A stretch of DNA of 32,000 bases from Pseudodesulfovibrio mercurii. Its GTDB lineage: Bacteria; Desulfobacterota; Desulfovibrionia; Desulfovibrionales; Desulfovibrionaceae. The position numbers and the translations under genes are program-made. How positions within the stretch are numbered: the first letter of the stretch is position 1; every line of letters begins with the position of its first letter. A model generated the notes under the pieces. It saw only the letters and a list, made by a program, of their open reading frames with translations, searched no databases and was not told the DNA's origin. Location: assembly GCF_000189295.2 (NCBI RefSeq), contig NC_016803.1, forward strand, positions 2,100,001-2,132,000, in the 5' to 3' direction. Below are positions 23,060 through 25,299 of the stretch, piece by piece.

Positions 23060-23097
23060 TCATCCGTAGGGCTCGAAGACTCGCCAACGGCTGAAGG

Positions 23098-23748
23098 CCC
23101 GGAGGCATTCCTAGTCCAGCGCGTGGTTGCCGACGTGGACGACAACGTGATAAAGGAGATCCTGTACGACCCCTTCGGCGGGATCATCGAGGACACCAAC
23201 CCGAGCCTGCGCCTGCCCATCGGCTTCGCGGGCGGCCTCCACGACCGGGACCTGGGGTTCGTCCGATTTGGCTGGCGGGATTACGACGTCAGGACCGGCA
23301 GGTGGACCGCGCCGGACCCCATCGGGGACAAGGGCGGCGACCCGGACTGGTAGGATACTGTTTGGACGACCCGATTAATGGAATTGATCCATTGGGGCTG
23401 TTCCGATTCGGCAAAAAAGGACTGTGGATTCTGCCCGGTATAGGCACCGACGGCTCTACCGCAGACAAAGGAAACTATGAACTCAAACATGAGCACGGTT
23501 TCTATGAGGATGGTACGGGAGACAATGTCGGTTTGTTTAAAGATGGTTTAAAACGGGATCAAGATATCACCAAATACACGCTTGACGAAACACACTTTGG
23601 CGACAAACGAATGAGACAGGCTGAAGAGAGTCTTGATCCGGGAGATTACAAGCTGTGCAAGTGGGGAGGCAACTCCAATAATTGCCAGGATTATGCCGAT
23701 GCTCTGCGCGAACGTTATCGATTCTTACGCACTGCGGAAAAGCACTGA
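23098..23748 (+). pseudogene. Orphan Rhs/YD C-terminal core fragment plus variable toxin tip (cassette 1), disrupted by a 1-nt frameshift at about 23352
   Basis: Frame A reads ...[64 protein letters not shown] then TAG (23351-23353). The -1 frame continues (Y)GYCLDDPINGIDPLGL plus a 115-aa tip ending at TGA 23746-23748. There is no upstream Rhs body and the 5' boundary is uncertain. Confidence 0.75.
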
Positions 23749-23797
23749 TGCAACAACAGCCGGGGGACAATTGTCTCCCGGCTGAAAAAGGATTTTT

Positions 23798-24334
23798 ATG
23801 AAAGGGTTAAAGGTATTCCTTCTCTGCCTAGTTCTCGGAGGCGTGTTTTTTTATAATTCCAACTGGTTTCAGTCATTTTTCCTGTACAACCGCTTTTACG
23901 AGAACATAGTTGATGTACCATTCGATGTGACAAAAAAAGGGGAGACGATTTCCTTTTCACTCAAGCACAAGTTCAATACTTGCTATGAATTGAATGTGGG
24001 AGTTCTTGATAAATACATTTTTCATCGTGGCATTGTTGGTCCAGGGGCTTTGAGGTATCGGTTCATTTCAAGAGGTCAAATCATCAAAGAAGGACTCACC
24101 TTTCCAGCGGAACGAAATCATCTCACACTTTATCGAGGGGTTACTTTAATAACCATACTGGTATTCGATCTCCCCTTCCCCGGCGCAGGGAGTGATGTAT
24201 CGCTGGAATTGACAGTAGATACCCCCATGACCTTTCTCAATGAACATGCAGGCAAGATTAGATGCAGCATCCGGCCCAACTATAGTGCAGACAGGGGGGG
24301 CTGCGATGAGGAATTACGAATAGATTCGATATAG
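23798..24334 (+). CDS. Candidate immunity protein for cassette 1 (N-terminal signal/anchor, exported)
   Basis: 178-aa ORF in AT-rich DNA immediately after the toxin tip, with AAGGA 6 nt upstream of the ATG. N-terminal hydrophobic segment LKVFLLCLVLGGVFFY. I recognise no family. Confidence 0.6.
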   Translation: MKGLKVFLLCLVLGGVFFYNSNWFQSFFLYNRFYENIVDVPFDVTKKGETISFSLKHKFNTCYELNVGVLDKYIFHRGIVGPGALRYRFISRGQIIKEGLTFPAERNHLTLYRGVTLITILVFDLPFPGAGSDVSLELTVDTPMTFLNEHAGKIRCSIRPNYSADRGGCDEELRIDSI

Positions 24335-24947
24335 CTCCGAGAGACCCCTTCGGGAGATCATCGAGGACACCAACCCGAGCCTGCGCCTGCCCCTCGGCTT
24401 CGCGGGCGGCCTCCACGACCGGGACCTGGAGTTCGTCCGCTTCGGCTGGCGGGATTATGACGTTCGGACCGGCAGATGGACCGCGCCGGACCCCATCGGC
24501 GACAAGGGCGGCGACCCGGACTGGTACGGCTACTGCCTGGACGACCCGGTGCACGGGGTTGATCCGGCGGGGCTTCGGACAGATATTGTCTATTACGACG
24601 GCCGAGTAGGCCACGTCGCGGTAGCTCCAGGTGGGGGAACCCCGGTTGGAAAATCTCCTGTCGGAGAAAAAGGATTGAGCGCGACAAAAGGGGTTTATAA
24701 AAAGGAAACAGGGGTTCCTATTTCAACAATCGAACTTGATACTACCCCAGAGCAAGAGTCGTACATGAAAGAATACCTGGATAGAGCCCAGAAAAGTAAT
24801 AGTGTCATATATGATTTGATAGATAGGAACTGTGTCAAAGGTGTTAATGACGTACTCGAGTCAGGTGGCTTGGATACCCCTAAGGGGATAAAGGGCATTC
24901 ACCCAGCAACATATATGGACAAATGGAAAAAACTTCTTGACAAATAA
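24324..24947 (+). CDS. Orphan Rhs C-terminal core fragment plus variable toxin tip (cassette 2); intact frame but no canonical start upstream of the core motif
   Basis: Open frame from 24324. It reads ...[73 protein letters not shown] plus a 123-aa tip. The first ATG/GTG/TTG in frame is GTG 24549, inside the DPxGL motif region. Confidence 0.7.
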   Translation: [207 protein letters not shown]

Positions 24948-24981
24948 CACTGGCGGCGGGGAACCACCGCCAGCATTAATT

Positions 24982-25299
24982 ATGAAAAAATTTATACTCT
25001 CATTTTTGACTATTGGATTTTTACTGAGTTGCATCAGTGATATCTTGTTACGCAATAAAATTGCATATCAAATTCCGTTCATATTAAATCCATATACATA
25101 CATTCATTTGGCAACATATGGATATGATTCTATTTTAATTATACTATATGATGTTCTAGCGTATGCTATAAACATCTCCGTCTATACATTATTCGGTTAC
25201 TTGATTGCCGTTGGTAACCGCTTCCATCAGTTTAAATACTTTTTTGTTGCTCTATTTGTCGTATATCAAATTGTTGTTGTAAGCATATTCTGGCACTAA
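24982..25299 (+). CDS. Candidate immunity protein for cassette 2 (small polytopic membrane protein)
   Basis: 105 aa from ATG 24982 (the ORF track begins at TTG 24937). Three to four hydrophobic helices (FILSFLTIGFLLSCI, ILIILYDVLAYAINISVYTLFGYLIAV, FFVALFVVYQIVVVSIFW). Very AT-rich. Confidence 0.6.
   Translation: MKKFILSFLTIGFLLSCISDILLRNKIAYQIPFILNPYTYIHLATYGYDSILIILYDVLAYAINISVYTLFGYLIAVGNRFHQFKYFFVALFVVYQIVVVSIFWH

Follow-up and report, generated by a model that had tools for sequence, protein, structure and literature searches.

An AT-rich island lies between the gene for acetyl-CoA synthetase (acs) and a Ser/Thr kinase gene in Pseudodesulfovibrio mercurii (contig NC_016803.1, positions 2,100,001 to 2,132,000, a stretch of 32,000 nucleotides (nt) that we refer to as the window). 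A first-pass annotation had described it as two tandem orphan cassettes, each composed of the C-terminal end of an Rhs protein and a small immunity gene, with no parent rhs gene in sight. The locus therefore raises the question where its parent is and whether the cassettes constitute an active pair of novel toxins. Our analysis indicates with high probability that the island is a decayed, resident polymorphic-toxin locus at the acs-kinase site, in which both toxins are disabled and two of three immunity genes are intact. The parent is not missing: in this lineage it is a protein of ~400 amino acids (aa), termed mini-Rhs here, and the left cassette (module 1) is the parent gene itself, the 5' part of which has been deleted. 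Likewise, the notion of two active toxins gives way to that of a decayed locus that is probably toxin-silent, as judged from a frameshift, the 5' deletion and the lack of a start codon.

The island between acs and the kinase gene

The same site is occupied in two other species. In D. caledoniensis (locus L029, CP195092) both sides are syntenic with the window, acs and the kinase gene being 91% and 86% identical at the nucleotide level, and in P. karagichevae (L042, 9FUS) the acs side is shared, the contig stopping before the kinase gene. Both carry a mini-Rhs gene at this position. The P. karagichevae gene is intact, and the order there is acs, type-1 repeat, type-2 repeat, promoter/5' untranslated region (5'UTR) and full mini-Rhs. 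Window positions 23050-23111 are 95-97% identical to the leaders of three further loci (L022, L018 and L024, at ~9794-9855); there, a conserved ~140-nt promoter/5'UTR and an ATG come next, whereas in the window the sequence jumps straight into scaffold codon ~194 after CCGGAGGCATTCC. Module 1 is a resident mini-Rhs gene that has lost its promoter, 5'UTR, ATG and first ~194 codons in situ and has no start codon. The 5' truncation points lie at codon 26 in L029, at codon 58 in L031 and at codon ~194 in the window, and as each of these three truncations has its own junction, decapitation is recurrent and not site-specific. Additionally, alignment to module 2, the right cassette, reveals that 1 nt is missing after 23352, which results in a TAG codon at 23351-23353. 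This frameshift had already been suspected and is borne out by a second, independent assembly (L001, a contig from Logan SRR3926152), which is 100% identical over 1063 nt across the site, so that a one-off error can be dismissed. The features of the locus and its flanks are:

20669-22636, minus strand: acs, acetyl-CoA synthetase (Pfam)
22854-23029, plus strand: type-1 repeat, a ~125-nt long imperfect hairpin, one of three copies in the window
22920-22972: 53-nt insertion resembling a miniature inverted-repeat transposable element (MITE) in the loop of this type-1 copy (copy C), also present in the syntenic P. karagichevae copy
23030-23111, plus strand: remnant of the leader upstream of mini-Rhs genes, ending in CCGGAGGCATTCC (similarity to intact loci)
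23116-23400, plus strand: module 1 scaffold remnant, mini-Rhs codons ~194-301, i.e. the tail of the YD shell and the Rhs-associated core (TIGR03696; tblastn against residues 193/208-303 of the mini-Rhs proteins P0075/P0060)
23401-23748, plus strand: tip 1, 115-aa toxin domain, out of frame with its own core (family alignment)
23757-23784, plus strand: GC-rich hairpin of 12 bp that separates the stop codon of tip 1 from the start codon of imm1 (-25.1 kcal/mol, z -6.5)
23798-24334, plus strand: Imm1, candidate immunity protein of 178 aa from an intact gene; one hydrophobic anchor or signal at its N-terminus, everything beyond it predicted to be exported (hydropathy)
24331-24575, plus strand: module 2 orphan core fragment (TIGR03696), the homology beginning inside the YDPFGG codons (~24331-24343)
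24576-24947, plus strand: tip 2, 123-aa domain, putatively of the PPPDE/DUF4105-like permuted papain fold (phmmer, AlphaFold2 (AF2) model)
24950-24973, plus strand: GC-rich hairpin that separates the stop codon of tip 2 from the start codon of imm2 (-18.8 kcal/mol, z -4.3)
24982-25299, plus strand: Imm2, candidate immunity protein of 105 aa from an intact gene, predicted to cross the membrane three times (G+C 0.30)
25429-25638, plus strand: ORF69, truncated third immunity gene (similarity to L029)
25659-25763, plus strand: type-2 repeat, hairpin and GCCGCCGGAGGCATTCC, the right boundary of the locus; same boundary in L029 (13180-13225)
25769-27328, minus strand: Ser/Thr kinase with Lcl_C domain (Pfam)

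Both modules have the same layout, i.e. a GC-rich Rhs core, an AT-rich tip and a small open reading frame (ORF) for a membrane protein, as the annotation had recognized. Their cores share an ungapped block of 182 nt with 92% identity (23171-23352 and 24345-24526), and the homology reaches the DPxGL codons (~23400 and ~24575) and then ceases; the demarcation motif PxxxxDPxGL is present in both modules and reads PINGIDPLGL in module 1. That both fragments belong to the Rhs core is confirmed by the hidden Markov model TIGR03696 (Rhs_assc_core; cut-off 32.5 bits), which matches module 1 with 67.3 bits (positions 1-76 of 76) and module 2 with 55.1 bits (positions 13-76 of 76). The outcome that the annotation had named as refuting its reading, namely a lack of such matches on both fragments, thus did not occur. 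The Pfam model TEN_YD-shell is matched by the window, too, with positions ~808-866 of 909 retained. Core domain, demarcation motif, AT-rich tip, small downstream ORF and missing start codon are thus those of orphan-type cassettes, as had been proposed.

The frame of module 2 is open from 24324 over 207 codons and contains no ATG, GTG or TTG ahead of a GTG at 24549. Orphans of this type, i.e. a 5'-truncated core plus tip, are located ~1 kb downstream of mini-Rhs genes in many loci, their core fragments starting at position 21, 24, 39, 50 or 54 of an 85-aa core query. A scan that is crude for this phylum gave no σ70-like plus-strand site upstream of either toxin frame, the counts being at chance level. 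For Rhs and contact-dependent inhibition (CDI) systems it is established that orphan modules lack initiation signals and that their immunity genes can still be expressed (PMC3150448). In agreement with the annotation, Pfam scans and tblastn give no Rhs body, PAAR, VgrG, secretion gene or recombinase in the window: tblastn with full mini-Rhs proteins finds no Rhs-like sequence besides the two modules, and there is no PAAR, VgrG, two-partner secretion, other secretion, integrase, transposase or recombinase gene among the larger window ORFs scanned (13 with Pfam matches).

To the right, the island had been drawn too short. The first 52 codons of ORF69 are 71% identical to a 127-aa ORF (start 11253) that directly follows the mini-Rhs stop in L029 and is preceded by a hairpin and an AAGGAG ribosome-binding site, and its 3' end is right-flank sequence that matches L029 13091-13135 beside the type-2 repeat. 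As its head thus matches a gene in immunity position and its tail the right flank, ORF69 is what is left of a third immunity gene, and the type-2 repeat forms the end of the locus.

The sharp drop in G+C between acs and the kinase gene is reproduced exactly (20/60 at 25021-25080 against 40/60 at 27001-27060). The G+C content is 0.65 and 0.70 in cores 1 and 2, 0.47 and 0.45 in tips 1 and 2, and 0.43 and 0.30 in imm1 and imm2. From about 0.65-0.70 in the flanking genes (0.67 for acs, 0.71 for the kinase gene) it declines to 0.29-0.47 in the AT-rich parts of the island. This pattern of a GC-rich core with an AT-rich tip and immunity gene is typical of every locus of the mini-Rhs family.

The type-1 repeat on the left and the type-2 repeat on the right, both noted before, are real multi-copy elements. 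Type-1 copies are found at 466-589, 18022-18143 and 22854-23029 of the window and elsewhere in L002 (P. indicus CP014206; 9281-9390), L022 (9504-9627), L024 (9507-9629), L029 (9748-9871) and L031 (9699-9822); the element lies upstream of mini-Rhs genes in these five loci and in L042, and also at unrelated intergenic sites. RNAalifold predicts 45 pairs, and at 14 of these the copies and species differ by compensatory changes. The repeat belongs to no Rfam family, and nothing in the window matches Rfam at gathering threshold. Possible identities are a structured RNA and a DNA palindrome similar to repetitive extragenic palindromic (REP) elements or MITEs. The 53-nt insertion in its loop looks like a miniature mobile element. 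An inverted relative is located at 11696-11743 of the P. indicus locus, inside a degenerate Rhs core remnant. This remnant (11630-11915), downstream of an intact mini-Rhs/immunity pair, has no tip, is split by the element, carries an in-frame stop at the WYGY codons and is another trace of cassette turnover.

Type-2 copies (768-876, 18187-18290 and 25659-25763) consist of a conserved leader (CCCGC…GCCGAAGGCAC.CAAAAAG), a perfect hairpin of variable stem and then GCCGCCGGAGGC. In relatives, the usual place of this repeat is 40-180 nt downstream of type-1 and directly upstream of the mini-Rhs promoter. We considered whether the island had split a single composite element into the two repeats and rejected this: in the other two copies the repeats are 43 and 178 nt apart, i.e. 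at no fixed distance, and at other loci both are found ahead of intact mini-Rhs promoters. On the minus strand at 29006-29092, in the intergenic region before a SPOR-domain gene, the initial ~87 nt of the mini-Rhs promoter/5'UTR recur with 78% identity; this copy points leftward, is followed by no Rhs gene and is kept in D. caledoniensis (L029 14853-14939).

The other large ORFs scanned in the window have housekeeping roles or otherwise no relation to secretion; among them are argS, dapF and genes for an EamA transporter, an AraC regulator, AAA_22, TPR and MBL-fold proteins, a catalase, a K+ channel and a SPOR-domain protein. Comparison of 27235-28926 with L029 shows that the K+ channel gene (27081-28409) and the next ORF, which resembles cyclic nucleotide-binding proteins, are missing in L029, where the kinase gene directly adjoins the sequence equivalent to window 28926 onward. 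ORFs 12482-14263 and 14376-15788, both on the minus strand, share stretches of 71-77% identity at a constant offset of 1604 nt (12798-12969 and 14402-14573; 13841-13897 and 15445-15501) and thus look like tandem paralogues; only the second has a Pfam match (TPR), and their neighbor is a 1073-aa AAA_22 protein.

A short Rhs parent in Desulfovibrionaceae

Apart from one protein (P0092), every homolog of module 1 with a named source organism belongs to Pseudodesulfovibrio, Desulfovibrio or another member of the Desulfovibrionaceae. Among the matches listed, all have ≤401 aa and many have 390-400 aa; they share the N-terminus M-x-PY-x-C…DGRI-x-EK-x-ET. The protein search is word-indexed and incomplete, i.e. 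an N-terminal query returned only proteins of ≤377 aa and missed its own 398-aa cluster, and statements on length were therefore based on ORFs at the DNA level. The DNA scan covered one genome per species and returned 75 loci. In Desulfovibrionaceae, the open frame around the core has at most 770 aa and typically 400-550 aa, and no long Rhs protein with this core is present in any Desulfovibrionaceae locus recovered, two complete genomes included. Outside this family, as in Chloroflexota, Actinomycetes, Acidobacteriota and Myxococcales, the ~290-residue segment is for the most part the end of an ORF of 1200-2600 aa where the contig holds the whole gene.

Intact copies have a conserved ~140-nt promoter/5'UTR (CTGTCAAGTTGCTTTTTTATGCTTATCG … GGAGG-N5-8-ATG), common to P. 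indicus, P. karagichevae and D. caledoniensis, and purifying selection acts on the 300 codons of the scaffold, the median ratio of non-synonymous to synonymous substitution rates (dN/dS) between pairs being 0.22. Based on this conservation and selection, mini-Rhs genes are real genes of ~400 codons and not fragments produced by gene callers.

An intact mini-Rhs covers positions 623-866 of the 909 positions of TEN_YD-shell, and a complete barrel was not encountered. Residues 4-302 of P0075 align to residues 1855-2145 of the 2237-aa teneurin-like protein (TLP) of Bacillus inaquosorum, BiTLP (PDB 9PT5/9IFO), with an E value of 1e-43, followed by animal teneurins (E 1e-20 to 1e-22) and then by Rhs proteins of type VI secretion systems (T6SS) or TcC proteins. 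BiTLP is the closest solved relative of the scaffold; in both, a variable toxin forms the C-terminus of the YD shell protein and an immunity gene lies downstream. However, TLPs have >2000 aa, a complete barrel and N-terminal domains, whereas the Desulfovibrionaceae genes retain the last ~13% of this length. Bacterial TLPs have been described as a subtype of polymorphic toxins with downstream immunity genes (PMC13018210, Nat Commun 2026); the words "orphan" and "truncated" are absent from the text of that paper. Small Rhs proteins with an "incomplete container" are also found among T6SS effectors (bioRxiv 10.1101/2024.02.26.582050, legend to Fig. S8). Like mini-Rhs, they are short and unable to close the shell, but they are mentioned there only in passing and not as a lineage-wide family with promoter, dispersed loci and orphan arrays.

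The N-terminus of mini-Rhs has no hydrophobic segment, and its Pfam matches are YD-shell and RHS-repeat models only. A linkage to T6SS (PAAR/prePAAR, VgrG, chaperone or T6SS genes) is absent from the window and the P. indicus locus. A locus on a Pseudodesulfovibrio contig (L014, MAG6 NODE_83) has genes for a 1717-aa cadherin-like/Big_9 adhesin, an ABC transporter with C39 domain and an HlyD-family protein (90-9445) directly upstream of one mini-Rhs array; as this arrangement occurs in no other locus, we treat a link of mini-Rhs to type I secretion as coincidence. The same contig carries two arrays ~14 kb apart with 14 core copies in total.

Mini-Rhs loci are dispersed, with at least 7 in the complete D. 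caledoniensis genome and at least 4 in a Pygsuia-associated isolate (among the genomes scanned, a complete one of Pseudodesulfovibrio bears the label Pygsuia-isolate-1). Since related complete genomes carry that many loci, paralogues are likely to exist in the source genome of the window as well. P0092, a 311-aa homolog from a eukaryote transcriptome assembly (EukProt TRINITY contig), is probably bacterial contamination, which would imply that some mini-Rhs gene is transcribed. We found no papers on Pseudodesulfovibrio with Rhs or with type VI secretion, and no earlier description in the literature of a teneurin-like Rhs stub of ~400 aa that has a promoter of its own, is encoded at dispersed loci with orphan arrays and lacks a trafficking domain.

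Tips, immunity partners and junctions

Tip 1 belongs to a family seen only on mini-Rhs proteins of Desulfovibrionaceae, with the motifs H-E-H-GF-x-EDG and NNCQD. In 37 sequences H45, E46 and N109-C110 are invariant or near-invariant, an H-box/NC signature, the His and Cys codons of which are located at 23488-23490 and 23683-23685 in the window. Four members of the family match Peptidase_C97 (PPPDE; best E 9e-5) and three match LRAT (best E 2.4e-4) in Pfam; tip 1 itself matches neither.

For tip 2 (His codon 24612-24614, Cys codon 24831-24833) a word-indexed search returned no homologs, and exhaustive phmmer was needed. It yielded 46, many of them C-terminal on RHS-repeat proteins of 460-2900 aa or on other long proteins and some with the Rhs core directly upstream. 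In 40 sequences C92 is invariant and H19 near-invariant; 9 of the 40 match Peptidase_C97 (best E 2.7e-6) and 8 match Lnb_N/DUF4105 (best E 3.1e-6). The AF2 model of tip 2 has a predicted local distance difference test score (pLDDT) of 93.4 and places the NC motif at the start of a helix after a β-sheet.

Taken together, both tips are best described, from sequence and model, as different families of the circularly permuted papain-like His/Cys superfamily (PPPDE/LRAT/DUF4105), tip 1 more weakly so. With the permuted papain-like enzymes of NlpC/P60 cluster II (PMC10318531) they share the order His-then-Cys, the NC motif and weak but consistent matches; they differ from PPPDE, LRAT and DUF4105 enzymes in reaching no curated threshold, in being fused to an Rhs core and in being paired with dedicated immunity proteins. 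Some observations count against the assignment. Tip 2 scores 16.7-18.2 bits in Pfam, below the gathering threshold of 29.2 bits. Its Foldseek matches are all below significance (E ≥0.06, probability 0.2-0.66, TM-score 0.4-0.5); the sole coherent group among them comprises the H-box/NC 2A proteins of Parechovirus and Aichivirus, PLAAT3/4 (H-REV107), AdPLA and MARTX RID, RID being faintly matched by a profile search as well (E 0.18). For tip 1, the fold assignment is weak, with a pLDDT of 62 and no significant Foldseek match, a result that is uninterpretable because the model is too weak. Characterized members of the superfamily cleave isopeptide bonds (PPPDE) or lipid amides (C92), or act on phospholipid esters with acyl transfer (LRAT/PLAAT) (PMC10318531).

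The annotation had considered the tips mutually unrelated and without a nameable family. They are indeed different families, but hhalign aligns their profiles with 90% probability in the Y-x-L…NC region; and the tips can be placed at the superfamily level, whereas Imm1 and Imm2 have no Pfam or NCBIfam family.

The small AT-rich downstream ORFs are as predicted, Imm1 having a single hydrophobic N-terminal segment and Imm2 three spans; the most likely start of Imm2 is ATG 24982. An Imm1 homolog directly follows a tip-1 homolog in L010, L014 (twice), L015, L017, L023, L026, L027, L032, L034, L037 and L051, i.e. the pairing recurs in at least 10 Desulfovibrionaceae loci, and Imm1 identity broadly tracks tip identity. 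The ORFs after tip-2 homologs in L033 and L014 code for proteins of 100 and 107 aa that likewise have three spans and have the motifs NPF/NPY and LN..(F)..FG in common, so that tip 2 is paired with an Imm2-like protein with three transmembrane (3-TM) segments in 3 loci; tblastn revealed no Imm2 homologs in the fetched loci, the kinship being one of position, size, topology and short motifs. This conserved pairing supports Imm1 and Imm2 as putative cognate partners of their tips. Neither pair is peculiar to the window: both recur, and relatives of tip 2 cap long Rhs proteins in other bacteria.

GC-rich hairpins with strong folding energies are present at both toxin-immunity junctions, as noted in the annotation. 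Across the Desulfovibrionaceae loci L002-L071, 40 of 89 toxin-immunity junctions have a strong GC-rich hairpin (z ≤ -2) within the first 60 nt past the toxin stop. These hairpins have a stem of 10-14 bp, a loop of 3-7 nt and no U-tract, and since their sequences are mutually unrelated, it is the structure and not the sequence that is conserved. Possible roles are mRNA 3'-end stabilization, processing, or the uncoupling of toxin and immunity expression.

Competing explanations and meaning of the locus

We propose that in an intact locus the conserved promoter/5'UTR would drive a mini-Rhs of ~400 aa, in which an exchangeable tip of ~100-130 aa is attached to the C-terminal ~300 residues of a teneurin-like YD shell, and that the hairpin and the cognate immunity gene follow at the 3' end. 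New tip/immunity cassettes would enter via recombination in the core, the cores of different loci being 85-91% identical at the nucleotide level, and older cassettes would be pushed downstream as start-less orphans; for rhs, Jackson et al. are said to have put forward a "C-terminal displacement" model in 2009. In Rhs/TcC proteins the tip is released at DPxGL by the aspartyl protease of the core, and mini-Rhs may do likewise. The released tip might then hit envelope lipids, lipoproteins or peptide links of a neighboring cell unless blocked by the immunity protein. The toxins would probably be phospholipid or lipoprotein acyl-hydrolases/transferases, or amidases, and they probably act in the envelope, as the partner immunity proteins are membrane-anchored or polytopic. 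In the window, the resident gene was decapitated and frameshifted (module 1), module 2 is one displaced orphan and ORF69 the truncated remainder of a third immunity gene. Neither toxin would be made here, and imm1 and imm2 would be kept as protection against toxin-deploying relatives. Most likely, the toxins of the locus are dead while its immunity is retained; it may also function as a reservoir, with an intact paralogue re-arming the cassettes by recombination.

Several points weigh against this scenario. Toxicity, immunity and silencing at this locus are predicted from sequence, and an internal promoter or a start codon of non-canonical type may allow module 2 to be expressed. It is the topology of the immunity proteins that suggests the envelope as target, and relatives that argue for an intact paralogue in the source genome. 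Moreover, mini-Rhs has no signal peptide, PAAR or other trafficking domain that would account for its exit from the cell.

The cassettes might instead be active from within, with an internal promoter and a non-canonical start in the core (module 2, possibly also the frame of tip 1), and act as an addiction system similar to type II toxin-antitoxin (TA) pairs. There is a precedent in Salmonella, where orphan Rhs modules, likewise an Rhs C-terminus plus immunity gene without a delivery part, have core-internal promoters and CTG translation starts (PMC7043789), and module 2 would be suited to it, its 207 codons being open, its catalytic His and Cys and its immunity gene intact, and GTG 24549 lying just before DPAGL. 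This GTG, however, has no obvious Shine-Dalgarno sequence, plus-strand promoter-like sites are absent with counts at chance level, so that neither feature of the Salmonella orphans is detectable here (crude σ70 scan), tip 1 is shifted off its own core, and the membrane-located, periplasm-facing immunity proteins fit a delivered envelope toxin better than a cytoplasmic TA pair; we therefore regard internal activity as improbable. Marginally less probable again is a free-standing orphan array that is purely a silent reservoir for a conventional full-length rhs parent located elsewhere and sharing ~170-230 nt of core. The reservoir role is the standard model (PMC3150448), and a core identity of 85-91% to loci of related genomes would suffice for homologous recombination. 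The orphan modules that lie downstream of rhs/cdi genes in Enterobacteria (rhs-CT/rhsI, cdiA-CT/cdiI; Poole et al. 2011, PMC3150448) share with the window the PxxxxDPxGL core end, an unrelated AT-rich tip, a small immunity ORF, a start-less toxin fragment, the tandem array and the intact immunity genes. However, no long Rhs protein with this core exists in the recovered Desulfovibrionaceae loci, where parents have ~400 aa and neither a PAAR/VgrG-linked N-terminus nor a full shell; synteny identifies module 1 as a resident parent truncated in situ and not as a displaced orphan, leaving an array without functional head; and the loci lie among housekeeping genes, not beside T6SS genes.

The sharp drop in G+C, the repeats on both sides and the occurrence of CCGGAGGCATTCC at both 23099 and 25751 might also be taken to indicate a recent foreign low-GC island that a mobile element inserted between the type-1 and type-2 repeats. 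We rejected CCGGAGGCATTCC as a mark of site-specific insertion, as such a flanking pair of 13-mers is not beyond chance once 2 mismatches are allowed, both copies are ends of repeat/leader elements that precede mini-Rhs genes elsewhere, and the 5'-truncation junctions differ between the window, L029 and L031. As, in addition, the window has no integrase or transposase and, according to a tRNA scan, no tRNA gene, the locus is kept at the same site in two other species and the G+C mosaic is general to the family, a recent foreign origin is highly improbable. The same low probability applies to the view that module 1 is intact and that its frameshift and truncations arose in sequencing or assembly: single-base indels are common errors, but the Logan assembly is identical at the site, and the 5' truncation is a clean fusion to the upstream leader with comparable truncations in L029 and L031.

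On its own, the decayed island reflects ordinary polymorphic-toxin turnover, with dead toxins and surviving immunity genes. Beyond this, a whole bacterial family appears to base its Rhs-type arsenal on a teneurin-like stub of 300 residues. We put forward only tentatively, leaning against it ourselves, that mini-Rhs proteins are an autonomous class of polymorphic toxins without closed shell or known trafficking domain and that PPPDE/LRAT-like tips with membrane immunity proteins are uncharacterized toxins targeting envelope lipids. Such a class might form its shell by oligomerizing or by docking on an unlinked partner, might use an unrecognized export route, or might act inside the cell in addiction or abortive infection. 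The locus yields two recurrent toxin-immunity families, which are directly testable; the immunity partner is anchored and periplasmic in one of them and has 3-TM topology in the other. Mini-Rhs challenges the need of Rhs toxins for a YD cocoon that is closed and for targeting by PAAR, VgrG or Sec. It also constitutes a tractable system for defining the minimal Rhs unit.

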